Positions 13,420 through 30,945 of a stretch of DNA of 55,647 bases are shown piece after piece. The position numbers and the translations under genes were made by a program. Every line of letters begins with the position of its first letter. Position 1 is the stretch's first letter. Origin of the DNA: a virus (lineage: Duplodnaviria > Caudoviricetes). The stretch lies in the IMG/VR virus record IMGVR_UViG_3300037516_001048, positions 1 through 55,647 of that record; one strand, 5' to 3'. The notes beneath the pieces were generated by a model that made no database searches, was not told the origin of the DNA, and was given only the letters and a program-made list of their open reading frames with translations.

Positions 13420-13745
13420 TGACTGATGAAGAAAAAGCACTGGCACGGGAACAGGCCAAGAAATGGTTGGCCCCGGTCACCACACCGGGCAAAAAGGCCC
13501 CGAAACGGTGGCGACCGACCCCCTCCCAGAAACGCGCCCTACCGCCGTGCATCTATCTGGGACGCTACGTTGGAGGCACCCTGTTCTACCGGGTGCAGTG
13601 GCAGTCGCAACGAGTCGCCCGGCATGTCGGGTGTTATCTCACCCTCGAGGAGGCCGTCCGCAGATTGCATCTGTCACGGCCCCCTCGCCCCGCCGCCCCT
13701 GTCAATCCTCGACGTCGCCCAGTCGGCTCACGGGTTGGCCCTTGA
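13416..13745 (+). CDS. hypothetical protein with AP2-like C-terminus
   Basis: MMTDEEKALAREQAKKWL...LPPCIYLGRY...YRVQWQ..RHVGCYLTLEEAV. Confidence 0.6.
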   Translation: MMTDEEKALAREQAKKWLAPVTTPGKKAPKRWRPTPSQKRALPPCIYLGRYVGGTLFYRVQWQSQRVARHVGCYLTLEEAVRRLHLSRPPRPAAPVNPRRRPVGSRVGP

Positions 13746-16700
13746 GCTCACCCCATGCCCGGCGGCGTCCGTCCGTGTAGGCTTTTTTGATGCGATCCAC
13801 ATCATCCTGTGTGGGCTTCAGGTTCAGGCCTTGGAGCGACTGCCGAGCCAGCGCCGCAGACCGGCCACTCAGTTGTTTGTAGGCCCCCGCATTCAGTTTC
13901 ACGCGCACCGTTTTACCATCCACTTGCAGTTCGTGCGTCCGGTCCGGCGTGCCCGGTGCCCATGCCTCCTTGCCGGGGTTAGCCGCGTTCCACTGCCGCA
14001 GCACGATGTCAGACGGCTCCACCCCGTCCTGCTTCACCAGCGCCGGCAATAGGATCCGGGTCAGGGCGTTGCCGGTTTTTTCTTTGTCGACTCCGGTGGC
14101 GGTATTCACACGGGATTCCGCCCCGGCCCCAAACGGAGCCAGTTGGTAATACCAGTCCGCCGTGGAACCGTCGCGCACCATGCTATCCATGTTGCGGAGC
14201 GGTTGGCGGATCAGGTTTGGCACCAGTGCCGTCATCACCGCCCGCTGACCCTTGTCGGCCAGCTTGCCGGGTTGTTTCATGGTATCGAACAGCGCCGCCA
14301 GCCCACTCAGGAACGTCTTGTCCATCGCAGCCTGCTGGAGAGACCCCAGCACCCGCCCGAACTTGTCAGCCACGTCCCCGCCGCCCTTGCTGATGCGGAG
14401 GGCATCAACCGTGGATCCCAGCACCGTCGCGAACGGCTCGACGCGGCCGTAGGGAATCCTGACGCCGCCGATCCGGATCACGTAGGCCCCGCCAGCGGTG
14501 CGTTCTTGCAGGTCGCGTTCCGCAAAGTCCGCAGGCTGGCTTCCGGTGATCAGGAGCCATTTTTTCTCGTCGTCGTCGTCACCCTCCGCAGCCCCCTTGA
14601 GCAGAGCCAGCGCCGCCATCGCCAGCGTTTGCTCCGCCAGCCATTTTATCATCTGCGGACTGGCCGCAGTGGCCAACTCCAACCGGCCACCGGACAGCTT
14701 CACCATCCCGTGTTTGCCCAACTGCCAGATCAGATTCGCCGCCCCCAAGGGACTTTTCCTGATCCCGTGCCGGAAGATGTTATAGGGCGTCCGGATAAAG
14801 GGCACCACGAACCCAAGCAACCGGTTGGAATTTTTCCATTTCTGTAGCGGTTTCAGGTTTTCGGGCAGGTCCTCCTGGAAGGTGAGCTCCTGCGCTTTTT
14901 GGACGGCCAACTGCCATGCCTGACTCCCCGGCGTGTAGAGCAGTTGGTTCATCCTTTTCGTCATCGCGTCCCCGCTCAATCCCTCCGCCTTGGCAATGCG
15001 GTAGGCCTGCGCCGCGGCTTCCATCTGCCCGATCAGCCCCTTGAAGAACCCATCCGTCGCCATCAGCGCCCGACCGGGAATCCGGATCACTTTGCCCTTC
15101 GTGCCTGAGATGGCGGTAGCCCGACCTTCACCTTTTGGCCCCGTCTCAAACAGGTCCAGCTGGGCGTTCAGAGCCTCATGCGCGAACCAATCGGTTTCGG
15201 TGCGCCACGACTTGGAGAACAACCGCATCCCCCGGACCAGTCCAGGCAGGAGGGCCTGCCGCATCGCGCCAAACTCCCCGAACGATGCCGACTTGTCATC
15301 CTGAATCACCAAGTTCCAGAGAGCCTCCATGCCACGCTGGACGGTGAGCTCGACGCCAGCGAAGGCCGAGTTACCCACGATGTTCACCACCTGCGTCTGT
15401 GGGCCGGAGAGGATGTTATTGATCCAGTATTCCTGGAGCATATCCATCGCCCCGCCGTGCGCGGCCTGCGTCACCCGCGCCAGCCGCACCACGTCCTCCG
15501 CATCAGCCAGGTCAGCGCCAATGAGGATGGAGACCTCATCTTGCAGCCCGAGGTCCAGTTCGTTCTGCGCCAGCGCCGGGCGGTCCCACACCTTCCCCGG
15601 ACCGGGGGCGATGGAGTTATCCGGCGTACCCATCTGCCCCAGCCGTGGCTGAGTGCCCCGGCCATCGCGGCCCATGGGTTGCGAGAGATATTCCTCGCCG
15701 CTCATGCCGGACTGTGCCGTGGGTGGCTGGTAGAGCCGCTTCCGTTTCACGATCTTGCGCTTGCCGAGTTGCTTCACGGGGATGCCATACCCCATCTGTT
15801 GGACTAGCTTTTGGATTTCGGCGGCGCGTTCAGCCTCCGTCATTCCTACCATGCGGGCAAAGTCCACATCCATGAATTCGTCTCCTGCCATGGCGGCGAC
15901 TTGGAGCGAGGAGGAAGCGGCCGCGATAGCGCGGGCCAGGCGGGCCTCCATCGCCTTGGTCAGTTGGCGGTCCATGTGGTCCTTCACCGCGAGCACCTCC
16001 TGCGGGGTCAGCCCCACCGCCTTCCCGATGTCGAGAGCGGACTGGGTGCCGCCTTTCAGAAGTACGGCGGCTCTCCGGTGTTTGTCAGATGCCAGCCCCG
16101 CGGCGGTCTCTCCGATGATCTTCGCCTTGGCCAGGCTCAACTGGATGCCGCCGGAGAACAGGTCATCCAACGTCACCCCCATTTTAGCAAACTCCGCCTC
16201 GATGCGGGCGATGCGCTGGGCATCCGCACCAAGGATCCGCTGGCGCTCCGCAGCACTACCCGCCGCCTCCAGTTTCTTCCGCGTCTCTGCCGGTGGCGTG
16301 AATATCTGCTTGGCGAGAAACTCCCGGTGCCGCTCCTCCGGAGTTTTGAAAGGATCCCGGCGGGCCGCAAGTCCCCGCGCCTGTTCCGTCCCGGCCTGAC
16401 GATACGCGTAGACCAGCGCCTGCAGGGTACGTTTACGGGCCGGGTTCATTGGCATCCGGCTCTCCTGTTCCACGATGATCTGTGCCGCCTGCGTGAGCTC
16501 CGGGGTCAGTTGGCCACCACTCAGGCCGATGTCCACCAACCGGCGGACGGTCCCGTCGTAGTTCGCCCGCAGCATCTCCACCGCGTCCGCACGCCACTGG
16601 TCGAAGGTCTCCTCCTGCACCGTCGCGTTCCGGTATTCATCCACCCCCATGATCACCGGATCACCGAACGTGGTGTAACTGTTGGTACCGGCCCCGAGGG

Positions 16701-19700
16701 ACAGGTCCGGATTGCCCGTCTTGCGGCTCCCGGAGGATTCGTTATCCGCCCGGTCCATCAGGGAATCCAGTTCATCCAGATCCACCCCGGCCCCGCGCAG
16801 CGCGTCGTCGAAGGATGCGGATTGCAGTGCCGCAGCCGACAGCGGGGCCAGATAGACTGGGGTGGTCAAGTAGCTGGACCTTGCCTCGCCTTCTGATTTA
16901 TTCCAGGCCCCCAGAACCCGAGCGTCCCTGATTACCCTTTCGCCAAAATCAGATCCTATTCTGGATGATGTTCCGGTAACCAAAACCACTTGAGCGCCAT
17001 AATAGTAACCATATCGGAATCCGGGGAGATCTCGCCCTCCCGTTACGCCTAAATGAAACAGAGCCTCCCTGATGGAGTCCCTGTCTAGTTTTATTCCGAT
17101 TGTGCTGGTTCCAGCCAGTTTTCTCTTTGTAGGCTCTCCATCATTCCACACTGAAGAAGGGGCCAAGGCATCGCCCGGCTTTACTTGCGGCACCGGATTA
17201 TTGTGCTCCACCATGACACGCAAGCCCAGCACGCGGGTTTTAGCGCCCGTTGCCAGCTTAAGAATTTCGTCAATGTTTTGCTCGAAAATCGCCAGACGGT
17301 CCGCATCCTGTTCTGCAAGTCCTTGATTCACGCCAAGATGATTACCCGCGCTTACTCCGGATGCAAGCGAATCACCACCTATGGCGTCCAGCGCCGCAGC
17401 CGACAGCGGAGCCAGCATCCCGCCCCGCCCCATCCCATCAGCCAGCGTTCCCATTTCGGGGCCAGTAGCCTCCGTGGCGGCGCCGGTCGGCGTTTCGTTC
17501 CGGGTGGCCATCGTGATCCGGAGCAGCGCGTATTCCGTTTCCAGCGCACGGAGCTTATCAATCTGCGGGAATTCCTGGCTCCCTGCGTCCACCTTCCGCA
17601 ACTCCGCCAACCGGTCAGTCAGGAACGCGATGTTCTCGCGGCTGTTCGCGGGCCGGTCCTCGATGCCGCTCACCAAGCTCCGGATCCCCAACACCAGACT
17701 TTGCCCGCCAGCGTACCAGTCCTTGTATTCAGTCGACCCCGGCACCTGCACCACCCCTACCAGGGCGTTGTCCTTGAGTTTGGCGGTCACTTCAAATGGA
17801 CGCCCGTTGACCTCCATGGCCAGCGTCGTCTGCTTGTCTCCCTGCATCGCCATACTGCCAGCAGCGCCGGCCAGCCAGAGGTCCAGCGGGTTGATGATCT
17901 TCCCGTCCTTCGCCCCCGTGTCGATGGTCTTCCCGTCGAACTTGTAGACCGGCTTGCCGTCAGCCTCCAGGAACAGCTTGCCATAGGTCGCGGCCTCCCG
18001 GTCCACCCGGTTCAGCAGTCCCTCACTGTAGGTGATGCTGGCGGCGATCCGGCGGATGTCTGCCGCCCGGCTGGCCCCCTGCCGTTGCCATCCATTGTAG
18101 CTGTTACGCAGTTGGCGCAGGTCCCGGTCCAGCATCACCTGCCGGATCATGAGAGGGTCACCCATCGCCTGCGCGGCCATCTCATTGAAGCCCATCTGGA
18201 TCTCATCCGTCGGGTCATCGAACTCATTGCCGATCGACTCACCGGAGAGGCTCTGTGCCACCATCCCCTGCTTCGCGGCCATCATGCTGTACACCACACT
18301 GTCCGTGGACCGCTGCACCGCGTATTCTATGATGCCGATGTCGAAGATTTTCGCGGCGGCGTCCGCTTCTGTCCGGATGGCTCCGTCCTTGTCGTTTTCT
18401 GTCAGCCATTCCTTGGCCGCTTTGGCCCGCTTGGCCCCGGTAGTCCCCGCGAAGGGAGTGCCCGCGGCGGTGCCCACCACCCGCGCAAAGGCCGCATCCC
18501 GCCATTCGGCATGGAGGTTCCCCTGCCGGATGATCCGTCCGTTCCGCTGCTCCATCATGGCCGGCTTGAAGTCACGCGGAGGCATCAGGTGATGCACCAT
18601 CGCCAGCCGCTCTTGGATGTTCACGCCCACGCCCAGTCGGGCCGTGCTGCCAATGATCACCCTCACCTTACCCTCGTTCACCGCATCGAGGATGGCCGTC
18701 AGCTTCTCGTCCTTCTCAGTCGTCACCACCACCACCTCCTCCGGTTTCATTCCGCCCGCGATGAGCTTGGCCTTGATGTCATCGCCCAGGTTGAATGCAC
18801 CCTCATTCCGGCCCATATCCGCAAACGGATTACCAGCGAACTCACCCAGCACCCCGAGCCGGAAGCTGTTGAACAGGTCCGAGAACATCACCTGCGCGGT
18901 CTTGTTGGCATCCCCGGAGCGGTAGATTTCCAGCGCCCGCTTGATGGCCACGTTCACCTTGCTCCCCGGATAGTCGGGTGCGTTGTCGTGGATCAGCCGG
19001 GGATCCAGCGCCGCCGCCATCCCAGCCTGCAGGCTCATGATGGGAATCGCCGTCAGCCGGGGATCCTCATCGATCTCCTTCCGGCCGATCGCCTTCCAGC
19101 GTGGAGCCACTTCATTGACGATCCATTCGTTGAACGCTTGGTTGGCTTGCGTCACCGGCACCACCACCTGCTCCGCCTTGCCGCCCGCGATGGATGGCAC
19201 ATCCAGCCCGAGGGACTCGTTGCCCATGGCCACATCGAACACCGACCGGATCAGCCGGATAAACTGCGGGCCATTCACAAATTTCGTGAAGCGGTCCACC
19301 ACCTTGATGCTGCCATCCCAGGTGCTTTCCGTCTGCGAAACCACGGTGCCGTATTGCGCCGCGAAGTCATCGAAGTTCACGATCCCGTTCGCTTCCAGCA
19401 TATCCGGGGCGATGTATCGCAGCATCACGTAGGCCTCTGCCATCGTGTTGGAGATTGGCGTGCCGGTGGCGAAGAAGACACCCTTCCCCTTCATGCGTTC
19501 CCGCACGTTGTGGGTTTTCAGCATCATACTCACCGCCTTGTCAGACCCCTCGCCGGTCGATGGGATGTTCTTCACGTCCCGCCCGCGATTGGTCACCACT
19601 GGGGCGTTCTTGAAGGCGTGCGCCTCATCCACGATCAGGGCATCCACCCCGATCTGCTCCCAGTCCAAGACGTTATCCTGACGTGCCCCGAGACGGGCAA

Positions 19701-22700
19701 TCATTTTGGTCCGTTTCTCCAGCAGCTTGTCGCGGGCCGCTTGGAGACGGCTCTGGCTCTCTGTGTCGTCGGCGGCACTGATGGCGGCGTCCAGTTCGTC
19801 GCTCTCCCTCGCGAAATACGCATCCACCGATGCCTGACTGTTCGGGATCTGCTCCAGATTGGAGTGAGTCATGATGATGGCGTCCCAGTCTCCCGTGGCC
19901 ATGCGGGCCGTGAATCGGGCGCGGGCCTTGGCGCTGTAGGAACGCGGCGTGGCCACCAGCAGTTTCGCCTGTGGGTAGGCCTGCCGGAACGACTTGGCAA
20001 ACTGGTTGATGGTGCTGTTCTGCACCACGATCACCGGCTTGCGGGCCTTGCCCAACCGGCGGAGCTCCATCGCCAGCGCGATCTGGTTGAAGGTTTTGCC
20101 GGACCCCACGCCGTGGGCCATCATGCCCCGCCCCTGCGTCAGGAGCCGGGCTATCACCGCCTTGCGGAAGGGCTTCAACCAGATGACTCCGCTCTGCCCC
20201 GGCAGCGTCACCCAGTCACCTACGAATTTCGGCGGCGTGATCCCGTTCACCTTTTCGTTGAAGATATTCTCCGTCAGCGCCGGGATAGGCACCATCACTC
20301 CGTCGTTCTCAGGGTCAGCCAGTTCTGTGTCCGTGGTCCGCACCCACTGGCGGAAGTCATCCGCCATTTCCAGCGCCTTGCTCTCCAGTTGGGCCGTCAG
20401 TTCGCTATCCACCACCGACTGCCGCAGCACCCGGTTATAGCTGGTCACCAGCAGCTTCCGGTTATTCAGGATGGCATCGAGCGTGTCGAACGCCGACCAG
20501 TCGCCCGTCTCCCATTCCGGCAATCCGCCGCGCCCCGCCGACTCAAAGTGATTCCGCTCCTTCACATATTTCACGGCTCCATTTTTGACGCCCAGATGCG
20601 CCATGTAGGCCGTATAGACCGCGTCCGGTATCCAGCGTGCTCCCACGTTGATGGAGGCTTCCGAGATCATCCGGCGGGGCGGCAGCGCGTTACGTAGCGC
20701 CTCCACGTTCCGAGCGTAGTCAGGGTTATCCTTCGCGGCGGCTTCTGCCTCCCGCAGCCGGACCGCTACCGGGCCGGACAGATATTCATCCGCCGTCATC
20801 AGTTGGCCGCTCGACGTGTCCTCGTATACGTGCCCGCCCTCCAGCAATGCCATGCGGGCCTCCGGCTCAGAGGTGCCGGTCAGGTCAGCCACGTACCGTG
20901 GATTCACGCTACCCTGCCAAGCCATCGACACCGACACCGCCTCCTCGAGGGATGCCGCAGTGGTAGGAGCCTCCAGCACCGGGATGATCCGCTGGCGGAA
21001 GATGTCCGCCTTTTTGTAGCGGTAGGCCACTTCGCCCCGCTCGTTGGTCACCATCGACTCCTCCTCCAGCGCCTCCAGCAGCGCATACTGTGGGTCGTCC
21101 TCCAGGAATCGGTACTTGTTGTTCCGGCGCACGCCGAGGGGGCCGAAGTAGGCCAGCACCCCGTTATAGGCCGTATTCAGCCGGGCGCGGGCGGCGTCCA
21201 GATCCGTGTCCATGCTGGCCGGGTTCACCTCCAGATTCACCATCTCCACGGCGGCATCCCGCAGCTTTGCCCACTGGCGGAAGATGGCCATTTTCTTCTT
21301 GGCTGCAGTCCGCTTGGCCTTATCCAGCGTCTCGTTTTCATTCCATTCCACCGGCTCCAGCCCCTCCGCCGTCACCTGGTAAACGATCCCGTCGCGCTCG
21401 ACGTAGGAGTCGATCTTGTCATCCCGCTCCGCCGCCACCGCATCCCAGCCGGTCGTAGCCGCATCACCCAGGATATTCTCCGGCAGGCGCTCCACCGCCG
21501 CCGCCAGTTGCTCATCGAGGCTCCCCATGGATTGCACGGTATATTCCCCGGCGGAATACATGGACCCCTGCAGCGCATGGCGACCCAGCACGTTCTCCGG
21601 ATGGCGTGCGTAGTACTCATTCACCCGGATCGGCGCAGAGAATTCCAGACTGTCGCTGGAGTCAGGCCGCTCCCGGAAGGCCTTTACGACCGCGTCCCAC
21701 TTTTTGCCAGTCTTTGGCCGGCCACCATCCATCCACGGCCTCCACGCCGTCGCCATCTCCACCGATGTCGGATTCCAGTCAGGCTCGATATCCGAAAACC
21801 AAGTGTGCAGGTCCACCGTGGTCTTCTGCCATGGCCGGGTCTTATCGACCGGGCGGCGGCTCATCACGTTATCCCGGCCCACCTGCATTTTTTCCATCCA
21901 GGGCTCCGGAGCCATCACCTGCTTGCCGTCAGGCTTCCGCAGCATGATCACATCCGTCACCACTTCCGTCCCCGCGTTTTCGGCGAAGGCGTCATTCGGC
22001 AGTCTCCATGAAGCCACCAACTCCGCCTTCCCGTTCAGGTAGGCCCGTTGGGCACGTTGGGATTCCATCGTGCCGGATGAGGTGATGAATACCACCAACC
22101 CGCCCGGCTTCACCTTGGCGAGGGCGCGGGCGAAGAAGTAATTGTGCAGGTTGAAATCCTGACCAAACTCCGACTTGGCCTTGCCCGGCCCTTCTTTCGC
22201 GAAGGGCACGTTGGAGATGAGCAGGTCCAGACTATTGTTGGGGATGCGGCTGTCTTGGAAGCCCATCCCGGATACCTCCCGGCCCGGTGCCGGCATCATA
22301 CCATTCACCCGCGCCTGTGGATACAGCTTGGAGAGGATGCGTGCCGTGACATCATCCAGTTCCGTGGCCTCCCACCGGGTCCGTTCCGCCATCGAGGGAG
22401 GTTGCACGCCAATGAAGTGCCCGATCCCGCCGCCCGGCTCCATCGCCCGGCCACCCTTGAACCCGAGGCGAGCCACCGCCTTCCACATGGATCCAATCAC
22501 GCTTGGGGTCGTGAAGTGAGCGTTACGCACCGACTTGGCAGCACTGCGGAATTCCTTGTCCGTCAGTTCCGCCCGCAGCCTGTCGTAGTGCTGCCCGTAG
22601 GTGGCCTGCCAGGAGAGCAGGGTCTGGGCTTTCTCTGGGTCATTCTCGCGGGCTCGCTGCTGCCAGTCGGTGCTGCGGGCCGGGCTCCGGTCGTAGGATT

Positions 22701-25700
22701 CGCGGTACGGCGGGCGAGCAATCTCGCGGGCAATCGTCGCCTCCCAGGTGGACTTCAACTCTGCGTATGCTTTCGCCCTGACATCGTTGAAGGCTTCCTT
22801 CATCCAGCCCCAGCCGGTGTAGGCCTCCAACACACTCTTCTCTTCCGGGGTAGGGTTGCGGCCGTCCGCATCCAACTGCCGCAGCAGTTTCATCGCCTCA
22901 AAATTCCCCGCCCACTTTTGGCTATTCGTGCGGGGGGCCACCTTGCCCATTGGGTCGATGACGTGGTTCCGGTCCGCCGGGTTTTCCGGCTGGGGGACTA
23001 TGGGATGTAGGCCATCGCGTCCGGATGGATCTTCCCGTAGACCTCCCACAGGTTTCTCCGCTGCTCCGCGTTCAGGCGGTTTTGCCACGCCATCACTGTT
23101 TCCTCCGCTTCCAGTTCCGCGTCCGTCTGGTCCGTTGCCTCCCGGCTGTCCGGATCCAGCCGTTGTGCCTCCCGTTTGGAATTCAGCCGACCAGTCAAAA
23201 AGGTCGTTAGCGCCTCCTGGAGCATTCTTGGATCGCTTGCTATTTTTGCCCCCTGCCGGTGTTCCGACAGCTGCACCAGTGTTGCCAGGACGTCCATCGC
23301 TTCCAGATCCATTTCCTTGAGTTCCATAATTCACACCATACCCGCCGGAAGATGCGAAGTCAAATAAGTCAGAAATCGCCGCCACCGTGGGCAGTTTCCC
23401 AGCGGGCACCTCCGCCTTCAGCGCCTTCGCAAAGGCCGGTTTGCTGCGTTTCGTCTTGGCAGGCAGGCTGTCCGCCCATTCGCCGAACAGGTCAGCGGAG
23501 CTTAACGGTCCGGCGGGAGCGGCAGGCCGTAGAGCGGAGCGTCGTCCGTTATCGGGAACATTTCCTTGATCTTCATTCCCTTGTGTGCTTTCACTAGCGC
23601 CTTTGTCTCCGGCCTGATTGGTTTCAAGGGCCGGGTGGCCGTAGTCGTAGGAGGCAAGTAGTTGGGTTTTGTTGGTGGCGTATTCATTGAGATTGGATCT
23701 TTCCTGCGTGAAATAATACTGCTCACCACGGTCTTTCGCAACCGGGGAGACGCTGGACTCCACCACGATGGACCGGAGACCTTGGCCCCCATCCTCGTAG
23801 ACATTGTCCCCAAACATGATCCCTCTCACCTCATAGGAATCCACCAGCGGCAGGTATTCCCGGAAGTTCATATGAAAGCCTTTATGCCCCCACAGAGTGC
23901 CGCCAGCAGGCACCAGGCGTTTACTCTTCAATCCCCGATCCACTGACCGGTTCATAGCCTCCCATGGATCGATCACGATCCCCCGGAGGTGCATTTCATA
24001 CCCTAGTCCCTTGATTTGCTCCATCAGGGGAATCACCTGCGGGGCGTGGCTCAGAGTAGCGTCCCAGATCAGGTTCACATGGTAGGGCAGTGCCAGCACC
24101 GCAACCACGACATCGTTGAAGATTTTCTGACTCTCGACGTGTACTGTCCCTGCCGCCCGACTGTCCCCCCGTGCCAGCATTTCCTGCATTTCTGGGATGA
24201 GCATTTTGATGTCATCCGCCGTCAGCGTCAATATTCCGTCGCCCGTAGCGATTTCCCCCGTCGATTGCATTTCCCTGATAAACGTGGACTTGCCCGCAGC
24301 CGGACCGCCGCCGGTGAACAGCACCTTACCCCGCCCATTCGCCCGCGCTTTTTCAGCCCGGTCCAGATACAGATCAATGATCGCTTCATGCAACTCATCG
24401 CGGGTGTATTCTTTCCCCGGCTCCAAGTAGTCCAGCAGGTAGTTCGGAATCACCTCCCCATCATCATCCTTGATCATCGTTGGCTGAATCACGGCGGTGG
24501 CATGAGTCAGCACAAACACCCCATCCACCTCCCGCGCCGTGGCCGGTGGTTTCGGCCCCGTGGGTTCGGGTAGTTTCGGCAGTTGCCACTCCGCATCAAA
24601 TTCCAGCGTCACGTCCAGCATCTTGATCGTCGCCAGAATCCGTTTATCCACCACCCCAGCGAACGCATCCAAATTGTCCGGCCCGATTTGCGAAGGCAGC
24701 ACCGCCGAGGACAGCGCCGCCGTCGCCAGCGCGTGCCGGTTCTCCCGCGTCTCCGTGGTCGCCGGATCCACCGCCTTCTGCCACAGCTGCTCCCGCGTCG
24801 CAGGCTCACCCCCGAACATATCCACCTGCGCCGGATTCCCCAGTTGAGCCACCCCTTCCACGTAGTTGGAGATCACCTCCTCCATCCGCGCTTGGTTGGT
24901 CCGGTTGGCGATCAGGAACTGCATCAGTTCCGTGACCATGGGATTCTCAAACACATCCGTCTGACTCTCCAGTCCCTGATAGACCGCAGACGACGGGGTC
25001 TTGGCAGATTTATCACGCAGGGCCACCGCGATCCGTTGTGCCGCCGCCCCCAAATCCACCGAGATGTCCCGTGGGTGCAGATTACCGGCCTTGCCTTCCG
25101 CCTTCATCCAGCCCATCCCAGCGGCCATGGTCAGCAGAGCCGCCGTGATCTTCTTGGCTCCAACACCCGTCGAAGCGGCCATCCGCGCCAGCGCCGCCCG
25201 GCCCTCCGCGTCCAGCCCATAGGCGGAGGCGAAAATGCCCATCCGCATCCGGCTAGCCAGTTCCGGCCCCGTCAGGTTGGCTTCGTTGGTACCGCCCGCA
25301 TCGATCACCTGAGCCACGTAGGCCGTCCGGAACGCCTCATTCTGTTTGGCCTCCAGATCAAAATTAGGATCCAGCAGGGTCAGCACCTGACGCGCCGGTC
25401 CCGCCAGTCGTTGGGCATCCTGCCCGGCCAGTTCGGTGGCGTTGGTCCGCATCGCCACTCCCTCATTACTGCCCTGTGAGAATTTGATTACCGTCTCCCG
25501 GTCGGTAGGTTCCAGCACCCGCACCAGTACCGGCTCCTTCATCGCCATCACGTCCTCCGGCGTCAGGCCGAACCGGGCCGCATTCTTCGCCAGCGCCGCT
25601 TTGTATTTCGCGGCAGTCGGGAAGCCCTCACTGTAGGCCATCGCCACCCCATTGAACCGCCCGTTGCCCACAATCACCTGACCGTTGGCATCCACCACTG

Positions 25701-28700
25701 GTGCCCCGAGATCCGGAGTGGTCGCTGGCACGTTCGTGTCAGGGAAGAACGCCGCCTGGTCGAAATCAAGCTCGCGGGCGATGTTCTGGCTCTGCTTCTG
25801 GTATTCCGGCAGGGACCGGTCCCGTGGTTGCAGCGCCTGATCATACCCAGTCGATGGCTGGCCACGGAAATCATGGGACGGCAGGAGAGTAGACTGTTCG
25901 CGCAGCGCGAAGACCGCCTTCAGCTTGACGCCATGCTGCGTGATCGTGGTGGCTCCTGCCGTTTCGCCTTGTGCTTCCGTTTGCGCTGGCACCATGGGCA
26001 CGTCCCGTGATTCCGGCACGCTGGGTCCAGCGCTTTGCTTCCCGTCAGAGGATGGCGTTTGGTTTTGCTCATTGGTTGTAGATTGGTTTTGCGCCACGCC
26101 GCCGAGGAACTCCCTCATCCGCCCCTCGATGAGCTTCACCGTGTCCTCGATTTGGGCGATGGTTTCAGGCGCAGCCCCAGCCTTCGCCAACTGCTTCTGC
26201 AAGTTTCGCAGGTAGCCCAGCAGCGCATTCACCGCACGCCGCAGGGAGGCCTTCAGGTCCGTCCCGGCCTGTTCGGTCGTTACCAGTTTCCCGTCCAGTT
26301 TCCACCCCTCTTGAGAGATAGCCATCCGCCCCTGCACGATCATCCTCAGGAACTCATGCCCCAGATTCCGGGGCTCCTTGCTGCTCCGGTTATAGGCGTC
26401 CCGTACCACCCGCTGCACTTTCGCGGGCAGGCTGTTATACAGGCCAGCCGCATCCAGCTTGCCACCCTTCTCCAGTTCCAATGCGGCCGAGTGGATCACC
26501 TCCTCGATCACAGCCAGCCGCGCCCATTCCTTGGTGTTCTGTTTTGTGTTTTCCGCCGTCTTGGCTAGAGCCCCGAAATCCAGTTCCAGTGCCCGGTCGG
26601 TGGAGTCGATTTGCAGCCCGCCCCCCAGCGTATTCTCCTTTACGCGGAATCCACCAGGGAATGCCCCCGCCCACTTCTTCGCCTCCATCTCCAGCGCCTT
26701 GGCCATTTCCTTGTTCCGCGCCACCCGTTCCGGCGTGGCCTTCAAGCCGCGGGCTTCCCCGGCCGCTGTGATGGCGTCGGCAAAACTCCCACCCTTGGCA
26801 GGCTCCGCCGTTGGTGCGTCCGGGGCCGTCTGTGGCGCGGCGACCGGCACCTCCACCGCATCCCGCACCATCCCTTGGCCGGTGGCCGCAACTTGAGCGA
26901 TGGCCGCAGTCCGGGATTCCGCCGTCACCCTCACCGGGGCGTCCACCCCATCAATCTCCACGTCCCACTGACGGCCCTGTTTCGGGGCCGTAGGGGCAGC
27001 AGTCGGTGCCGCAGTCGTTGCCGCAGCAGGTGCCGGTGCCGCCGTTGGATCAGGTGCCGCCGTTGGGGCCTGCGCTGCCATCGCCGCCTGGGCAGCGTCT
27101 TGCGCGGCCTGCTGCAACACTGCATCACGCCGTTGCACCTCCCCCGCCGTGATCAGCGCCGCCGCCGCCGGGAATACCCGCTTCGTCCGGTCGATCAGTC
27201 CTTGCCCCAGAATCAACTGCCCGGCCTCCATCGTCACGCGGGGCACGCCGTCCGGCGAGGGGTTGGGGTCCTCGCCGACCACAATCTCAGCGGCAGGACC
27301 ACGGGCCAGTCCGAGCGTGGCCAGTTGACCGTTGTCCAGCGTCGCCGCCCGGCCCGTGGCCACCGCCACCACCGCCCGTGCCGTGGCCACCGCCAGTACG
27401 TGCTCCGGAGTCCCCACAGCCATCGTCAGTCCCGTGACTGGATCCATTACGGGGCCAGCCAACTGCTCCTCCAGACCTACCAAATTCTGTACGCCGGTCA
27501 GCACCGCCTCCCGGCGATCTTTTTCCAGTTGGGCCATCCCGCGCAGCGCCTCCCGCGCCGTCACCCGGTCACCCTTGTTGCGGGCCTCCTCAGCCACCAG
27601 TCCCAGCGCCTCTATCTGAGCCGTGATCCCCGGCACCGTCCCAAATTGCTCCAGCGCCGGCACTGGCCCGAGCGCCGTGGCCATCTTCTGAGGATCCACC
27701 CCAGCCATTTCCGCGAGCCCTTCCTCCGTGGCCGTCATCACCGCCTCCGATTTAGCGATCTCCGCCTTCAGTGCATTCCCGGCTTGATTCAACTGCCACG
27801 CTTCTTTCAACGGACGCATCGCTTTGGCCGTCATCCGCGCCGCACCTCCGGCCCCGCCGAACGCGCCACCACCGATCAACTCACCGATGGCGTTCTCCCA
27901 GATTTCAGTCTGCTCTGCTGCCGTGTAACCCGCTGACAAGTCCGTTTGATTGGAGATACGCGCAGCATAGACCCCAAGAATCCCCTGCATAAAACCCGTG
28001 GCACCCTCCGTGGCCGGGTTCTTGGCCGCTTTCAGGGCACCCATGCCCACTTCCTTCATGAAGGACCGCATCCCCTTATCAGCCACGGCCCTGAGTTCCT
28101 TGGCCGGACGGCCCACCAACTTGCTAATCAACCCACTTTCCATACCGGTCAGGGCATCGAGTGCCGCCGCCGGAGCACCCAATATCAGACTGGCCGCGAT
28201 GGAGCGGTCCACCTTGTCAGGGTCATTCACCAACTGCGCCGGGGTCATGCTCCCCAGGGTGCTTTGCAGGTATTCCCCGCCGTTCCCACGGAAGGAGGAA
28301 CCGAACGCACCCCACTTCGCGACGTTGGCCGCTGACTGCTTCCGCATGATGTCAAAGAGCGGACCCTTCCCCCCTCCCTTGATTTCCGACTTCAGCAGCA
28401 TCAGGACCCGGCTTTCCACCAGCACCGTCGCCATCTCAGAGGTCAGCTTGCGCTTCACCATCAAGTCCGCAGCCTCCTTGGCGATCAGTTTTTTCACCGC
28501 CGTTTTGCCCATCAGACCCGCCACGCCACCACCTACGGTGCCGGGACCAGGGGCCACCGCGCTACCAATCGCCGCGCCGGCCACCGTCGTCACCACCGTC
28601 TCCCCCAAATCGAAGACCATATTGGAAACGGTCTTGCCCACGTAATGCAGGGTATCAGACAGGCTCTCGATCTCCCCGAAGGTATCCACCACACTACCAC

Positions 28701-30945
28701 GCTCCTCCGCCCGCTTCATGTGCTCCGCACTTTGTGCGTGCAGGCTGAGGAATTCCTCGTCATCCCCAGCCAGATGGTTCATCGCTGCGCGCATCATCAG
28801 CCATGTGCCGGTGTATTGGTCCCAGCCGTCAGCGATCTCTGACTTCGCCACATTTAATCCGCCGGTCGCCCGCAGCTGTTCTGATTTGAGGTTTTTCGTG
28901 GTCGCCGTCAACTCCTTGTCGACCGCCCCGGTGTTGAACAGCGGCTGATTGCCGTACTCCTTGATGTACCCCTTCAAAGCCGTCATCCGCGCCGCGGCGC
29001 TGCTGGCATCCTGCTGGCTCAGTTTCCCGGCGGCGTCCAGGGTCACTGCCATGTCAGGCACCGGCTTCACCTCGATTCCCGCCGCCTTGTAGGCATCCAC
29101 CACCTTGTTCATGGGCACGGCCCCCTGCCAAGCCAGGTCCCGCACCCGGCGAAGGTCACCCTGCATCCGTTCCGCTGCCTTGTCATACACGACCGCAGTT
29201 TCAGCCGACCGTTTCTCAAACATGGCCGACATCTCCTCCGGCGAAAGATTCCGCGCCGACCCCGCCGAGGCAATGTCGGTCTGGTGCGCCGCCATCGCCC
29301 CCTTGATCAGCCCCTGCAACTCCCGGCCCCGGTTGGTGATCTCCGCCACCGCAGCATACCCGGCCTCCCGCTCCTGCCGCACATCCGCCACCGGCTTCCC
29401 TCCGGCCTCCTCATTCCCCAGCAGTCGGCGAGTGTTGCCCTCACCTTCCGCACGGGCTTCCACCATGGTCTGCCAGTCGGGCCGCAGGAACACATCCTTG
29501 CCAGGGTTTTGAGCGATGGCCGTTTGCAGGTCCGCCACATTCTTGGCTTCCAAGGTCCCTGCACGGAATTTCGGCGTGAAGGCGTAGTCCAGCGCCACTT
29601 TCGGGGCCGCAGGATCAGCCGCCGCCACCCCAGTGGCCGAGTCGTTAGCCGCCGCCTTCGCCGCTTGCTCTTCCTTCACAGCATCCACCGCTTTCACCTG
29701 CTCATCACGCAGTCCACCGGCATACCGGTTGTGATCGTCGATCGTTGTTCCCAGTGCGTCAAACTTCGCCTTCAACCCCTGCGACCGCAGCAGTAGCGAT
29801 TCCCGTTGCCGGATGATATCCGGGGCCTCCGCCGCCGTATACCCAGCCTCCCCCACCGCCTTCAGCGCCAGAGCCTCCGCGTTCAGTGCCTCATCCTCGA
29901 TCTTGAGCTCCGCCTTCCGCGCATCCATCTTCTGGAGGCTCTCAGCGAGGTACCGCGAGCGCACCGCGTTCTGTTCCTCCGGTGTTTTCCCGGCCAGGCT
30001 CGCCTTGTTAAAGGTATCACTCGACTGGGTCGCCAGACCGGCTTCCTCCACACCGATTTCTGAAATTCGCTTCTCCCGGCTATCCCGCTCCGCCTGTCGC
30101 GTGATCAAAAGCTCATCTGCCGGAGTGGCCGTGCCGCCCGACTTCCGCACCCGCGCATCCTCCAACTGGGTGGGATTCGGGGCGTTCATGTCAGGGGCCG
30201 TCAGCTCCGCCCGCAGCTTGGCCTGCTCACTGGCCAGCCCAGTCTTTTTCCGTGTCCGCAGCGCCGCCGTGGATGCCTCCCGGACCTTGGCATCAGGAGA
30301 TAGGACCCCTTCCTCCGGATCGATGGCGTCCCACTTGGCGTTGGCGTTCTGCCGGTAGATGTATTTGTCGTTCGGGTCTTTGGGATTGCCCCCGATTGGC
30401 GCCTCCGCATCCAAGAAGGATTGCTTCATCTCCCCAGCCTTCCGCTCCACCTTGTAGGCGCGGCCAGTTGAATCCCACTTGGTGGGACCGTCGATATCTT
30501 TGACGACGGGTTTCCCGGTCATGGGGTCCTTGGCTTCCACCACGGTGCCGTCCGGATTCTTGTGATAGCCGAGCCCCGCCGCGTCCATCTCCACGGCCTT
30601 CATGTCCTGCACCGCGTCGAAGTTAAGTTTGTCGACACGCGCCTGCTCCTTGGCATTCGCCTTCGCGACTACCGCCTCATGCGCCGACTGCCGGACCTGT
30701 TGACGCTGCTCCGTAGCTTTGTCCTGGTCATACTTGTCCCACGCACGCTCCTCCCCACCATCATAGGTCTTGGCGAGACCGGAAGGTAGGCGACGTGGAT
30801 CCACCCCGGACGGCGCACGCACCGCAGGGGCTTGAGGTGCCGCAGGGGCTGGGGGCTCCGTTACAGAGCCATCCTCCGGCGGGACCACCGGAGGGATAGG
30901 GGTGGCAGGAGATAGGACAACGCGGCGCGTAGGTTGCAGAGACAT
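13702..30945 (-). CDS. giant DarB-like polyvalent protein (5747 aa): ddrB-type ParB, Zeta-like P-loop kinase, N6-adenine methyltransferase, SNF2 helicase, possible ART-like domain
   Basis: ParB-like LPSH...QPRDR...GAPVV...GNGR (~25450-25930); GGGPAAGKST...DATL (~23700-24400); EPGGGIGHF and ISNVPF MTase motifs (~21900-22500); GVGSGKT, VDEAHAFKN, ATGTPISNT and QRNGRIIRQGN helicase motifs (~18500-20150). Confidence 0.92.
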   Translation of the reverse strand: MSLQPTRRVVLSPATPIPPVVPPEDGSVTEPPAPAAPQAPAVRAPSGVDPRRLPSGLAKTYDGGEERAWDKYDQDKATEQRQQVRQSAHEAVVAKANAKEQARVDKLNFDAVQDMKAVEMDAAGLGYHKNPDGTVVEAKDPMTGKPVVKDIDGPTKWDSTGRAYKVERKAGEMKQSFLDAEAPIGGNPKDPNDKYIYRQNANAKWDAIDPEEGVLSPDAKVREASTAALRTRKKTGLASEQAKLRAELTAPDMNAPNPTQLEDARVRKSGGTATPADELLITRQAERDSREKRISEIGVEEAGLATQSSDTFNKASLAGKTPEEQNAVRSRYLAESLQKMDARKAELKIEDEALNAEALALKAVGEAGYTAAEAPDIIRQRESLLLRSQGLKAKFDALGTTIDDHNRYAGGLRDEQVKAVDAVKEEQAAKAAANDSATGVAAADPAAPKVALDYAFTPKFRAGTLEAKNVADLQTAIAQNPGKDVFLRPDWQTMVEARAEGEGNTRRLLGNEEAGGKPVADVRQEREAGYAAVAEITNRGRELQGLIKGAMAAHQTDIASAGSARNLSPEEMSAMFEKRSAETAVVYDKAAERMQGDLRRVRDLAWQGAVPMNKVVDAYKAAGIEVKPVPDMAVTLDAAGKLSQQDASSAAARMTALKGYIKEYGNQPLFNTGAVDKELTATTKNLKSEQLRATGGLNVAKSEIADGWDQYTGTWLMMRAAMNHLAGDDEEFLSLHAQSAEHMKRAEERGSVVDTFGEIESLSDTLHYVGKTVSNMVFDLGETVVTTVAGAAIGSAVAPGPGTVGGGVAGLMGKTAVKKLIAKEAADLMVKRKLTSEMATVLVESRVLMLLKSEIKGGGKGPLFDIMRKQSAANVAKWGAFGSSFRGNGGEYLQSTLGSMTPAQLVNDPDKVDRSIAASLILGAPAAALDALTGMESGLISKLVGRPAKELRAVADKGMRSFMKEVGMGALKAAKNPATEGATGFMQGILGVYAARISNQTDLSAGYTAAEQTEIWENAIGELIGGGAFGGAGGAARMTAKAMRPLKEAWQLNQAGNALKAEIAKSEAVMTATEEGLAEMAGVDPQKMATALGPVPALEQFGTVPGITAQIEALGLVAEEARNKGDRVTAREALRGMAQLEKDRREAVLTGVQNLVGLEEQLAGPVMDPVTGLTMAVGTPEHVLAVATARAVVAVATGRAATLDNGQLATLGLARGPAAEIVVGEDPNPSPDGVPRVTMEAGQLILGQGLIDRTKRVFPAAAALITAGEVQRRDAVLQQAAQDAAQAAMAAQAPTAAPDPTAAPAPAAATTAAPTAAPTAPKQGRQWDVEIDGVDAPVRVTAESRTAAIAQVAATGQGMVRDAVEVPVAAPQTAPDAPTAEPAKGGSFADAITAAGEARGLKATPERVARNKEMAKALEMEAKKWAGAFPGGFRVKENTLGGGLQIDSTDRALELDFGALAKTAENTKQNTKEWARLAVIEEVIHSAALELEKGGKLDAAGLYNSLPAKVQRVVRDAYNRSSKEPRNLGHEFLRMIVQGRMAISQEGWKLDGKLVTTEQAGTDLKASLRRAVNALLGYLRNLQKQLAKAGAAPETIAQIEDTVKLIEGRMREFLGGVAQNQSTTNEQNQTPSSDGKQSAGPSVPESRDVPMVPAQTEAQGETAGATTITQHGVKLKAVFALREQSTLLPSHDFRGQPSTGYDQALQPRDRSLPEYQKQSQNIARELDFDQAAFFPDTNVPATTPDLGAPVVDANGQVIVGNGRFNGVAMAYSEGFPTAAKYKAALAKNAARFGLTPEDVMAMKEPVLVRVLEPTDRETVIKFSQGSNEGVAMRTNATELAGQDAQRLAGPARQVLTLLDPNFDLEAKQNEAFRTAYVAQVIDAGGTNEANLTGPELASRMRMGIFASAYGLDAEGRAALARMAASTGVGAKKITAALLTMAAGMGWMKAEGKAGNLHPRDISVDLGAAAQRIAVALRDKSAKTPSSAVYQGLESQTDVFENPMVTELMQFLIANRTNQARMEEVISNYVEGVAQLGNPAQVDMFGGEPATREQLWQKAVDPATTETRENRHALATAALSSAVLPSQIGPDNLDAFAGVVDKRILATIKMLDVTLEFDAEWQLPKLPEPTGPKPPATAREVDGVFVLTHATAVIQPTMIKDDDGEVIPNYLLDYLEPGKEYTRDELHEAIIDLYLDRAEKARANGRGKVLFTGGGPAAGKSTFIREMQSTGEIATGDGILTLTADDIKMLIPEMQEMLARGDSRAAGTVHVESQKIFNDVVVAVLALPYHVNLIWDATLSHAPQVIPLMEQIKGLGYEMHLRGIVIDPWEAMNRSVDRGLKSKRLVPAGGTLWGHKGFHMNFREYLPLVDSYEVRGIMFGDNVYEDGGQGLRSIVVESSVSPVAKDRGEQYYFTQERSNLNEYATNKTQLLASYDYGHPALETNQAGDKGASESTQGNEDQGNVPDNGRRSALRPAAPAGPLSSADLFGEWADSLPAKTKRSKPAFAKALKAEVPAGKLPTVAAISDLFDFASSGGYGVNYGTQGNGSGSDGRPGNTGAAVGTPAGGKNSKRSKNAPGGANDLFDWSAEFQTGGTTAGSGQPGGNGPDGRGTGSGGNSDGVAKPPERGAAEKPVGGLREDPSGRDGLHPIVPQPENPADRNHVIDPMGKVAPRTNSQKWAGNFEAMKLLRQLDADGRNPTPEEKSVLEAYTGWGWMKEAFNDVRAKAYAELKSTWEATIAREIARPPYRESYDRSPARSTDWQQRARENDPEKAQTLLSWQATYGQHYDRLRAELTDKEFRSAAKSVRNAHFTTPSVIGSMWKAVARLGFKGGRAMEPGGGIGHFIGVQPPSMAERTRWEATELDDVTARILSKLYPQARVNGMMPAPGREVSGMGFQDSRIPNNSLDLLISNVPFAKEGPGKAKSEFGQDFNLHNYFFARALAKVKPGGLVVFITSSGTMESQRAQRAYLNGKAELVASWRLPNDAFAENAGTEVVTDVIMLRKPDGKQVMAPEPWMEKMQVGRDNVMSRRPVDKTRPWQKTTVDLHTWFSDIEPDWNPTSVEMATAWRPWMDGGRPKTGKKWDAVVKAFRERPDSSDSLEFSAPIRVNEYYARHPENVLGRHALQGSMYSAGEYTVQSMGSLDEQLAAAVERLPENILGDAATTGWDAVAAERDDKIDSYVERDGIVYQVTAEGLEPVEWNENETLDKAKRTAAKKKMAIFRQWAKLRDAAVEMVNLEVNPASMDTDLDAARARLNTAYNGVLAYFGPLGVRRNNKYRFLEDDPQYALLEALEEESMVTNERGEVAYRYKKADIFRQRIIPVLEAPTTAASLEEAVSVSMAWQGSVNPRYVADLTGTSEPEARMALLEGGHVYEDTSSGQLMTADEYLSGPVAVRLREAEAAAKDNPDYARNVEALRNALPPRRMISEASINVGARWIPDAVYTAYMAHLGVKNGAVKYVKERNHFESAGRGGLPEWETGDWSAFDTLDAILNNRKLLVTSYNRVLRQSVVDSELTAQLESKALEMADDFRQWVRTTDTELADPENDGVMVPIPALTENIFNEKVNGITPPKFVGDWVTLPGQSGVIWLKPFRKAVIARLLTQGRGMMAHGVGSGKTFNQIALAMELRRLGKARKPVIVVQNSTINQFAKSFRQAYPQAKLLVATPRSYSAKARARFTARMATGDWDAIIMTHSNLEQIPNSQASVDAYFARESDELDAAISAADDTESQSRLQAARDKLLEKRTKMIARLGARQDNVLDWEQIGVDALIVDEAHAFKNAPVVTNRGRDVKNIPSTGEGSDKAVSMMLKTHNVRERMKGKGVFFATGTPISNTMAEAYVMLRYIAPDMLEANGIVNFDDFAAQYGTVVSQTESTWDGSIKVVDRFTKFVNGPQFIRLIRSVFDVAMGNESLGLDVPSIAGGKAEQVVVPVTQANQAFNEWIVNEVAPRWKAIGRKEIDEDPRLTAIPIMSLQAGMAAALDPRLIHDNAPDYPGSKVNVAIKRALEIYRSGDANKTAQVMFSDLFNSFRLGVLGEFAGNPFADMGRNEGAFNLGDDIKAKLIAGGMKPEEVVVVTTEKDEKLTAILDAVNEGKVRVIIGSTARLGVGVNIQERLAMVHHLMPPRDFKPAMMEQRNGRIIRQGNLHAEWRDAAFARVVGTAAGTPFAGTTGAKRAKAAKEWLTENDKDGAIRTEADAAAKIFDIGIIEYAVQRSTDSVVYSMMAAKQGMVAQSLSGESIGNEFDDPTDEIQMGFNEMAAQAMGDPLMIRQVMLDRDLRQLRNSYNGWQRQGASRAADIRRIAASITYSEGLLNRVDREAATYGKLFLEADGKPVYKFDGKTIDTGAKDGKIINPLDLWLAGAAGSMAMQGDKQTTLAMEVNGRPFEVTAKLKDNALVGVVQVPGSTEYKDWYAGGQSLVLGIRSLVSGIEDRPANSRENIAFLTDRLAELRKVDAGSQEFPQIDKLRALETEYALLRITMATRNETPTGAATEATGPEMGTLADGMGRGGMLAPLSAAALDAIGGDSLASGVSAGNHLGVNQGLAEQDADRLAIFEQNIDEILKLATGAKTRVLGLRVMVEHNNPVPQVKPGDALAPSSVWNDGEPTKRKLAGTSTIGIKLDRDSIREALFHLGVTGGRDLPGFRYGYYYGAQVVLVTGTSSRIGSDFGERVIRDARVLGAWNKSEGEARSSYLTTPVYLAPLSAAALQSASFDDALRGAGVDLDELDSLMDRADNESSGSRKTGNPDLSLGAGTNSYTTFGDPVIMGVDEYRNATVQEETFDQWRADAVEMLRANYDGTVRRLVDIGLSGGQLTPELTQAAQIIVEQESRMPMNPARKRTLQALVYAYRQAGTEQARGLAARRDPFKTPEERHREFLAKQIFTPPAETRKKLEAAGSAAERQRILGADAQRIARIEAEFAKMGVTLDDLFSGGIQLSLAKAKIIGETAAGLASDKHRRAAVLLKGGTQSALDIGKAVGLTPQEVLAVKDHMDRQLTKAMEARLARAIAAASSSLQVAAMAGDEFMDVDFARMVGMTEAERAAEIQKLVQQMGYGIPVKQLGKRKIVKRKRLYQPPTAQSGMSGEEYLSQPMGRDGRGTQPRLGQMGTPDNSIAPGPGKVWDRPALAQNELDLGLQDEVSILIGADLADAEDVVRLARVTQAAHGGAMDMLQEYWINNILSGPQTQVVNIVGNSAFAGVELTVQRGMEALWNLVIQDDKSASFGEFGAMRQALLPGLVRGMRLFSKSWRTETDWFAHEALNAQLDLFETGPKGEGRATAISGTKGKVIRIPGRALMATDGFFKGLIGQMEAAAQAYRIAKAEGLSGDAMTKRMNQLLYTPGSQAWQLAVQKAQELTFQEDLPENLKPLQKWKNSNRLLGFVVPFIRTPYNIFRHGIRKSPLGAANLIWQLGKHGMVKLSGGRLELATAASPQMIKWLAEQTLAMAALALLKGAAEGDDDDEKKWLLITGSQPADFAERDLQERTAGGAYVIRIGGVRIPYGRVEPFATVLGSTVDALRISKGGGDVADKFGRVLGSLQQAAMDKTFLSGLAALFDTMKQPGKLADKGQRAVMTALVPNLIRQPLRNMDSMVRDGSTADWYYQLAPFGAGAESRVNTATGVDKEKTGNALTRILLPALVKQDGVEPSDIVLRQWNAANPGKEAWAPGTPDRTHELQVDGKTVRVKLNAGAYKQLSGRSAALARQSLQGLNLKPTQDDVDRIKKAYTDGRRRAWGELKGQPVSRLGDVED
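16825..17415. repeat. 27-bp direct repeat (25/27) encoding LAPLSAAAL flanking a domain insert
   Basis: CAGTGCCGCAGCCGACAGCGGGGCCAG at 16825-16851 and CAGCGCCGCAGCCGACAGCGGAGCCAG at 17389-17415. Confidence 0.85.
22998..23327 (-). CDS. nested +1-frame ORF (109 aa) inside the giant gene
   Basis: Amphipathic helical composition; preceded by TTGACT-N17-TATGGT 7 nt before the ATG; the host frame here is a low-complexity G/S/N linker. Confidence 0.6.
   Translation of the reverse strand: MELKEMDLEAMDVLATLVQLSEHRQGAKIASDPRMLQEALTTFLTGRLNSKREAQRLDPDSREATDQTDAELEAEETVMAWQNRLNAEQRRNLWEVYGKIHPDAMAYIP
23335..23363 (-). promoter_or_regulatory. internal sigma70-type promoter TTGACT-N17-TATGGT
   Basis: -35 at 23363-23358, -10 at 23340-23335, ATG at 23327 (leaderless geometry). 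Confidence 0.6.
23502..23687 (-). CDS. nested +1-frame ORF (61 aa) directly after the Zeta-like domain
   Basis: MNTPPTKPNYL...ETKALVKAHKGMKIKEMFPITDDAPLYGLPLPPDR*; its stop coincides with the PLSS linker motif. Confidence 0.4.
   Translation of the reverse strand: MNTPPTKPNYLPPTTTATRPLKPIRPETKALVKAHKGMKIKEMFPITDDAPLYGLPLPPDR
25920..26072 (-). CDS. nested +1-frame ORF (50 aa) with CRNHGxCPWC motif
   Basis: MSKTKRHPLTGSKALDPACRNHGTCPWCQRKRKHKAKRQEPPRSRSMASS*; preceded by the C/A-rich leader CAAAACCAATCTACAACCA like stand-alone genes of this phage. Confidence 0.65.
   Translation of the reverse strand: MSKTKRHPLTGSKALDPACRNHGTCPWCQRKRKHKAKRQEPPRSRSMASS

Follow-up and report, generated by a model that had tools for sequence, protein, structure and literature searches.

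A small Cys/His-rich open reading frame of a widespread phage family lies nested within a giant polyvalent-protein gene

Introduction

The phage spanin genes Rz and Rz1 occur in embedded, overlapped, or separated architectures, with Rz forming a functional coiled-coil and the embedded product being an outer-membrane lipoprotein that pairs with the product of its host gene. Two published sources (PMC6139136; PMC5295617) treat these two-component spanin genes of lambda-like phages, and viral overprinting, represented by genes B, E, and K of phiX174, is covered in two reviews (PMC8227390; PMC6195259). Polyvalent proteins of phages and conjugative elements were described by Iyer et al. (2017; PMC5512222); in the main text of that paper the word "overlapping" has no occurrence, and a literature search returned nothing on genes nested in polyvalent-protein linkers. 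Here we describe a 50-amino-acid (aa) open reading frame (ORF) that lies, on the minus strand of a tailed-phage sequence, entirely within the gene for a 5747-aa polyvalent protein. The sequence (IMG/VR record IMGVR_UViG_3300037516_001048) is a complete virus record of 55,647 bp with a completeness rating of 88%, and the whole of it is hereafter called the window. Our results indicate that the nested ORF is probably functional as a gene and that it belongs to a family of small proteins widespread among phages.

The locus resembles Rz/Rz1 in that a complete small +1-frame gene sits wholly inside a larger phage gene of the same strand, and in that members of one family are embedded in some phages and separate in others; Rz/Rz1 is the closest known architecture. 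With phiX174-type overprinting it shares the encoding of two proteins by one DNA in different frames under asymmetric selection. The enclosing gene, for its part, is a typical polyvalent gene of the class presented by Iyer et al. (2017), since it combines several unrelated effector and enzyme domains (ddrB-ParB, a Zeta-type kinase, an SNF2 helicase) with a C-terminal internal-virion domain and a virion-gene context. Terminase, portal, major head protein, and replication genes are all present in the window, and 300 relatives of the giant protein bear Pfam sets of the polyvalent type.

Results and Discussion

The nested ORF runs from ATG to TGA, encodes MSKTKRHPLTGSKALDPACRNHGTCPWCQRKRKHKAKRQEPPRSRSMASS, and is preceded by CAAAACCAATCTACAACCA, exactly as a first-pass annotation, made from the letters of this DNA alone, had reported (coordinates of this and other features are given in Table 1). 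It is in the +1 frame relative to the giant ORF and covers host residues 1625-1675. Host residues 1617-1665 form a linker that separates an upstream domain from the ddrB-ParB domain; this linker consists almost entirely of the small gene and its leader, and the start of the ddrB-ParB domain coincides with the end of the nested ORF. Residues 1-41 of the nested product are homologous to the family described below, and its last ~10 codons (PPRSRSMASS) overlie the conserved sequence with which the ParB module of the host begins. Across the codons for CRNHGTCPWC, the host frame reads VPESRDVPMV. By length alone, a 50-aa ORF in an alternative frame is no more than chance would supply here: 45 ORFs of at least 30 aa overlap positions 24000..28000, and the giant gene, with a G+C content of 62%, commonly contains ORFs of similar length in alternative frames. 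The content of the ORF, as judged from sequence comparison, is far beyond chance. When the peptide was searched against the six frames of the whole window, the nested ORF was the single matching place, and a family profile scored 75 bits (E 1e-24) in the nested frame and below 0 bits in the two other same-strand frames of 25601..26500 (900 nucleotides, nt).

The first-pass annotation had linked a CRNHGxCxxC motif to small stand-alone phage proteins, and homology searches with the peptide revealed a large, real family of such proteins. A phmmer search against 1.84 billion (1.84e9) protein representatives found 370 proteins at E<=1e-3, including 3 at E<=1e-10, the best real match being P0005 (66% identity over residues 1-44, E 2e-12). 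The listed matches numbered 150 of the 370, and 148 of these were kept as family. Two proteins on the list, P0004 and P0058, were dropped as long repeat proteins without the Cys motif. Nearly all of the 148 are 46-130 aa long and about half aligned from their own residue 1; the similarity of the nested ORF to family members is whole-length and begins at the N-terminal Met. Searching 50,697 phage records by tblastn produced 22 records at E<=10, five of them convincing (Table 1). All five hold free-standing ORFs of 48-80 aa, the two best E values belonging to ORFs of 49 and 48 aa, and these stand-alone ORFs either begin MSRTK(R/K)KPYT or bear a short N-terminal extension. One contig, L161, carries two copies of the small gene ~530 nt apart (motif positions 7518 and 8052).

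The family is defined by alignments A1 and A5. C19, C25, C28, and R32 are invariant in a 24-sequence alignment, with K13, D16, R20, H22, and G23 at >=90%; the larger alignment, of 149 sequences, has C19, C25, and C28 as invariant columns, with R20, H22, G23, and R32 at >=90%. The window ORF retains every one of these columns, i.e., the entire core of C19-R20-x-H22-G23-x-C25-x2-C28 followed by R32. The basic N-terminal segment of the family, (K/R)(K/R)PYxGSKAxD, is present as KRHPLTGSKALD, in which the usual Y is replaced by L, as it is in P0005 and P0048, and K13 and D16 are kept. No family match was found when the peptide and members were scanned against Pfam, NCBIfam, PHROGs, and PADLOC; the best library match of the nested peptide was phrog_30431 (E 0.21; E 0.027 for P0011). 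Sub-threshold Lar and Zn-ribbon matches were obtained for P0005 only (Lar E 0.008, 16.5 bits against a cut-off of 39.6), and an extra C-terminal CxxC in that longer protein contributes to them. A word-indexed protein search with the nested peptide gave no candidate, the ESM Atlas held only viral "hypothetical protein" clusters (49-61 aa), none of 15 listed members from 10 clusters carries a name, and a literature search for "CRNHG" recovered unrelated papers only and nothing on the family.

Might the ORF instead be a chance occurrence, or a DNA or RNA element, whose likeness to the family is convergent or stems from a conserved nucleic-acid site? ORFs of this kind are common in a gene of such G+C content, and the 10-codon core is nearly identical in DNA among the nested copies described below, which share TGC CGG AAT CAC GGG. 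However, many different synonymous codons encode the same core residues among stand-alone members, indicating that the protein is what is conserved, and the match to P0005, drawn from so large a protein set and aligned from Met to residue 44, likewise stands against this explanation. Encoding R20 by CGT or AGA can introduce a TAA or TAG into the host frame, and the codon identity of the nested copies fits, at least in part, with avoidance of stops in that frame. Taken with the phmmer result, the codon comparison appears to leave chance or a nucleic-acid element virtually no room, and we regard it as extremely improbable.

To see how often the gene is nested, we scanned IMG/VR twice with family alignments (295 relatives among 315 pattern matches, and 255 among 287), and the best 80 matches of each scan gave 115 distinct neighborhoods. 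Besides the window, the small gene is embedded wholly within a larger same-strand ORF, in another frame, in 13 of the 115. Seven of these contigs have a host ORF of 1518 to >4000 codons (L093, L094, L095, L096, L097, L103, and L108) and six have one of ~115-224 codons (L098, L099, L033, L035, L083, and L109). The shorter hosts sit between portal and scaffold/protease genes in annotated loci (L077/L109, L083, and L099) and are conserved in sequence outside the nested part too. The host frame runs one base ahead of the small gene in 13 of 13 contigs and in the window, giving VPESR(D/E)xPxV-like peptides over CRNHGxCPWC. The other same-strand frame is shut by the TGA in ATGAGC, so that frame-1 open stretches at nested loci begin 4 nt after the ATG and only the -1 frame can read through the small gene. 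Since this TGA closes the other frame, the common frame alone does not show a single origin. A 482-codon +1 open frame that starts 4 nt after the small-gene ATG was also seen in L113/L114 (8005-9450). The terminase large subunit of the related L117 does not start until 8131, and the L113/L114 frame is probably chance upstream openness of that gene and not nesting.

Outside the cassette, the host genes are unrelated. The giant proteins of genomes G001 and G002 have only 32 aa in common, and these lie over the nested gene. Four groups of giant hosts emerged from an all-against-all BLAST: L093/L094/L097; L095/L096, with L103 distantly; L108; and the window, whose host protein shares with the first group only a C-terminal domain of ~600 aa. 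Outside the giant genes, the window and G002 show three weak protein matches (23-41% identity), and G001 shows none with either. Nucleotide similarity across unrelated hosts extends from -13..0 to +115..+141 relative to the ATG, and the shared stretch is therefore the small ORF itself. Family homology, together with the same nesting in unrelated phages, points to a real gene within a gene. The first-pass annotation had looked to relatives of the giant gene for the C and H residues in the +1 frame, and there the expectation failed: a regular expression for the host-frame signature found it in none of the 119 other giant ddrB-ParB proteins, and the closest relative, discussed below, does not keep the ORF either. 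The giant genes that do retain the small ORF differ from the window's giant gene.

Nei-Gojobori ratios of nonsynonymous to synonymous proportions (pN/pS) were calculated for 21 pairs among seven nested copies, the window copy excluded. The small frame gave 0.16-0.52 and the host frame 0.72-5.9, and such low small-frame and high host-frame values indicate that the small protein is conserved and the linker peptide is not. The small gene would be the old one and the giant-gene linker the overprinting frame. In proposing real overprinting here, the first-pass annotation was correct that two genes occupy one stretch of DNA, as attested by the 13 nested contigs and purifying selection; the polarity appears to be the reverse of that in classical overprinting, the small gene being the older.

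The leader of the nested gene was compared with those of other genes in the window. A Shine-Dalgarno-like word precedes only 6 of 39 window ORF starts by a loose regular expression, 4 of the 6 being GTG or doubtful starts, and window leaders are G-poor and C/A-rich (e.g., at starts 31644, 51947, 52970, and 13204). These sequences suggest that the bacterial host of the window phage may initiate without Shine-Dalgarno pairing. The mean number of G in positions -20..-1 was 2.7 for 28 ATG-start window ORFs, hand-picked from the ORF list with no independent gene caller, versus 7.5 for 335 ATGs inside the giant gene. With 1 G in 20 nt (GCAAAACCAATCTACAACCA), the nested ATG is the sole one of the 335 with <=1, and only 0.34% of the 20-mers of the giant gene are as G-poor. 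By a leader position weight matrix it ranked 2nd of 335, the top-ranked ATG opening a 14-codon ORF. Similarly G-poor leaders precede other nested copies, and the genes of those phages look the same in this respect; in provirus L108, some of whose genes have Shine-Dalgarno-like sites, the nested copy starts with GTG after ggaagggggggcaaagg. The word GCAAAACCAA is present twice, 24 nt apart, in window 26049-26097 (minus strand), one copy lying in the leader and the other forming codons 2-5; the pair may reflect a small duplication that made the leader, or chance in A/C-rich sequence.

A second alternative dispenses with separate initiation: programmed +1 frameshifting would add the motif after residue ~1624 of the giant protein, yielding a truncated isoform with a Zn-knuckle tail. 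The small frame is indeed open for 14 codons upstream of the ATG (a 64-aa open frame), and for longer in L061. However, every nested copy keeps a start codon at the start of the stand-alone members, which a frameshift product would not need, and nucleotide conservation between hosts starts at -13..0 and not upstream. No known +1 shift site was seen by eye in the 40 nt before the ATG, no formal scan having been made. We consider this frameshift product very unlikely.

The origin of the nested copy was approached through the only close relative found in IMG/VR, contig L006 of genome G003, which is rated 100% complete and shares 76% aa identity in the ParB region. Its giant ORF is continuous at the nested site, with a linker of 46 aa versus 49 aa in the window, and the two linkers cannot be aligned. 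The last ~10 codons of the window ORF overlie a piece of the host gene that L006 shares in conserved form (TTITQHGVKL), and the tail of the window ORF is therefore read-through and not family sequence. In a rough tree based on 40 columns, the window copy grouped with stand-alone L009 (UFBoot 96, SH-aLRT 77); a starred branch parts the window copy from the main nested clade, and the label "nested" changes at least three times on the tree. These results favor an independent capture of the small gene in the window lineage, as far as the sequences tell; loss and then decay of the gene in G003 is the less favored alternative. A scan of JGI metagenomes for relatives of the giant gene returned only two loci, at 30% identity, unfit to polarize gain versus loss. 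L006 also contains a 71-nt direct repeat (2773-2843 and 4144-4214; 90% identical, spacing 1371 nt or 457 codons) that brackets the linker and ddrB-ParB module of its giant gene, and that looks like a possible junction for in-frame insertion or deletion of the module; the window has no long direct repeat beside the cassette. Next to the terminase gene, the window carries a gene for a serine recombinase or DNA invertase (3722-4363, minus strand; phrog_125, E 3e-31).

Seven lake-water metagenome runs contain parts of 24500-27500. Run X3, from another study, covers 25929-26213 with 0 differences, which we count as showing that the DNA of the nested stretch is real. The same region (24500-27500) gave no blastn match among phage records, and a transfer RNA (tRNA) scan of the window found none.

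Several observations weigh against the functional interpretation, and most of them would suit a third alternative, in which the ORF is an engulfed relic, i.e., derived from the family, unexpressed here, and surviving as recently captured linker-coding DNA. The L006 linker contains no family ORF, the family hidden Markov model scoring below 0 bits there, and G003 has no copy of the small gene anywhere; since this closest relative has a complete genome, that lineage can do without the gene. On the tree the terminal branch of the window copy is long (0.52), and its pN/pS is high: compared with other nested copies, its values are 0.56-0.81 in the small frame and 0.87-1.29 in the host frame, but with 50-62 differences per 120 nt they are near-saturated and uninformative, so that purifying selection is seen in the other copies and not in the window's. 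Nested copies can decay, as is evident from L109 (=L077, ~8001-8100), where a stop at codon 33 follows the Cys/His core (CQSNR*) and the ~115-aa host remains open; that copy is either decaying or a shorter form. The 10 C-terminal residues of the window ORF, as read-through into host DNA, would fit a relic as well. Variant X5 offers a weak hint at best: in its piece 25995-26145, the 78 nt within the ORF show 0 differences and the 73 nt that precede the ATG show 4, and with 21 of 577 nt differing (3.6%) over four other pieces, a zero in the ORF is expected ~6% of the time. No RNA run was among those listed as containing the stretch, and the leader comparison depends on the hand-picked set mentioned above. 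Against a relic, the start codon, 41-residue core, and nine conserved residues are all intact at ~40% divergence from the nearest relatives, the leader matches the type usual in this genome and is unique among the 335 internal ATGs, and the other nested copies are clearly under purifying selection. On balance we judge a relic unlikely, although less so than the other alternatives, and return to a functional nested gene as the preferred explanation.

The nested protein is strongly basic, with 14 K/R versus 2 D/E. An AlphaFold2 model built from 149 sequences, with no ligand modeled, had a mean predicted local distance difference test score of 79.5 and shows a basic N-terminus in extended form, then a short helix at 12-15, a turn with C19, H22, and C25, and a helix at 26-39 that begins P26-W27-C28. 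The family core of C-x2-H-x2-C-x2-C would then form a zinc knuckle that leads into a basic helix, and from the conserved columns and the model we infer metal binding through C, H, C, and C. That this basic knuckle binds nucleic acid is a proposal to which we give about even chances. A sequence-profile search of the PDB gave 0 matches at E<=10, as did Foldseek against the PDB, and the best Z in a wide VIA-align search was 2.0. Lar, YgiT-type fingers, and the IS1595 ribbon are similarly short, Cys/His-rich, and basic, but the spacing C-x2-H-x2-C-x2-C is not theirs and matches to them were sub-threshold only.

Annotated neighbors of free copies (148 of 192 neighbor ORFs) were mostly without assigned function or belonged to DNA and nucleotide metabolism, including DNA methyltransferase (6), 5'-3' deoxyribonucleotidase (7), HNH endonuclease (3), and, further, single-stranded DNA-binding protein (SSB), PAPS reductase, RNA ligase, and NrdD. 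The small proteins beside 5'-3' deoxyribonucleotidase are near-identical and form one clade. In L113 and L117 the upstream neighbor is the small terminase subunit, which in L117 is then followed by the large subunit. At 8 of 60 loci scanned, the free-standing gene lies within a phage tRNA array (Table 1), where copies often begin 10-90 nt past a same-strand tRNA, such as tRNA-Met in AhSzw-1 and tRNA-Arg in LR756511. This placement may point to a role connected with RNA or translation, or may only reflect tRNA regions rich in small ORFs.

Table 1. Positions and supporting details of the nested gene, its host gene, and family loci in other records
Feature	Record	Coordinates	Strand	Evidence or remark
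Nested small gene	Window	25920..26072	-	50 codons + TGA, ATG start
Presumed metal-binding knuckle CRNHGTCPWC, codons 19-28 (C19, H22, C25, C28)	Window	25989..26018	-	Conserved columns
Nested-gene leader, G-poor, C/A-rich, without Shine-Dalgarno site	Window	26073..26097	-	Resembles leaders of other window genes
Host-frame linker, giant-protein residues 1617-1665: VAQNQSTTNEQNQTPSSDGKQSAGPSVPESRDVPMVPAQTEAQGETAGA	Window	25951..26097	-	Flanks align with L006, linker does not
Host gene, polyvalent/internal-virion protein, 5747 aa	Window	13702..30945	-	Domain matches
ddrB-ParB domain, host residues 1672-1811	Window	25513..25932	-	PF18763, E 8.7e-22
Zeta_toxin-type kinase, host residues 2193-2361	Window
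SNF2-rel_dom/ResIII and Helicase_C in host protein	Window			Helicase_C 22.6 bits, under 23.5-bit cut-off
C-terminal internal virion protein domain of host	Window			phrog_6651, E 4e-17
Stand-alone ORF	Aeromonas phage AhSzw-1 (two records)			E 4e-6
Stand-alone ORF	MW202801			E 4e-5
Stand-alone ORF	MT836507			E 7e-4
Stand-alone ORF	LR756511			E 3e-3
Nested copy	L093 (=L061)			Host 4591 aa
Nested copy	L095 (=L052)			Host 2593 aa
Nested copy	L103			G+C 0.48
Free-standing copy in tRNA array	L001	2911-3150
Free-standing copy in tRNA array	L003	1388-1680
Free-standing copy in tRNA array	L067
Free-standing copy in tRNA array	L071
Free-standing copy in tRNA array	L075
Free-standing copy in tRNA array	L130
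Free-standing copy in tRNA array	L134
Free-standing copy in tRNA array	L166

Conclusions

The giant gene reads the nested DNA one base earlier than the small gene does, as a linker rich in Q, T, S, P, and E before the ddrB-ParB domain, and we propose that the small protein is made by independent initiation at its own ATG, behind the G-poor leader without a Shine-Dalgarno site that is usual for this genome. Translation in the window phage, like the route of origin, is something we infer. Selection would act on the small frame, the linker frame being only tolerated. As to origin, a host ORF may have come to read through a pre-existing small gene, either by insertion of a cassette into the linker or by extension or fusion of adjacent ORFs.

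The locus also differs from the systems it most resembles. The nested protein, by reading of its sequence, has no hydrophobic N-terminal or membrane segment, lipoprotein signal, or lipobox, and it is therefore not a spanin; unlike Rz1, moreover, it has hosts that vary and no fixed partner, and the host frame is an unconstrained linker. In phiX174-type overprinting the embedded frame is new and arose de novo, whereas here the embedded gene would be old and the enclosing linker new.

The family documented here is large, comprising at least 370 clusters at 50% identity that are unmatched in Pfam, NCBIfam, PHROGs, and PADLOC, and gene callers necessarily miss its members when they are nested. It provides a clean, recurrent gene-within-gene in tailed double-stranded DNA phages with a polarity opposite to that of the textbook model, and how overlapping genes originate and persist can be tested directly here, since a single family offers both nested and free copies for comparison. 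More speculatively, and with the chances in our view rather against it, the small gene may be a mobile cassette among unrelated phages that is repeatedly nested in disordered linkers of virion-packaged proteins. Giant polyvalent genes would then grow or be stitched together by engulfing small genes, an engulfed gene would gain late, virion-coupled expression, and such "reverse overprinting" could generally supply the linkers of giant phage proteins and conceal genes that annotation misses. The linkers of polyvalent and internal-virion giants are worth scanning for embedded genes, and may be sites of cassette exchange.

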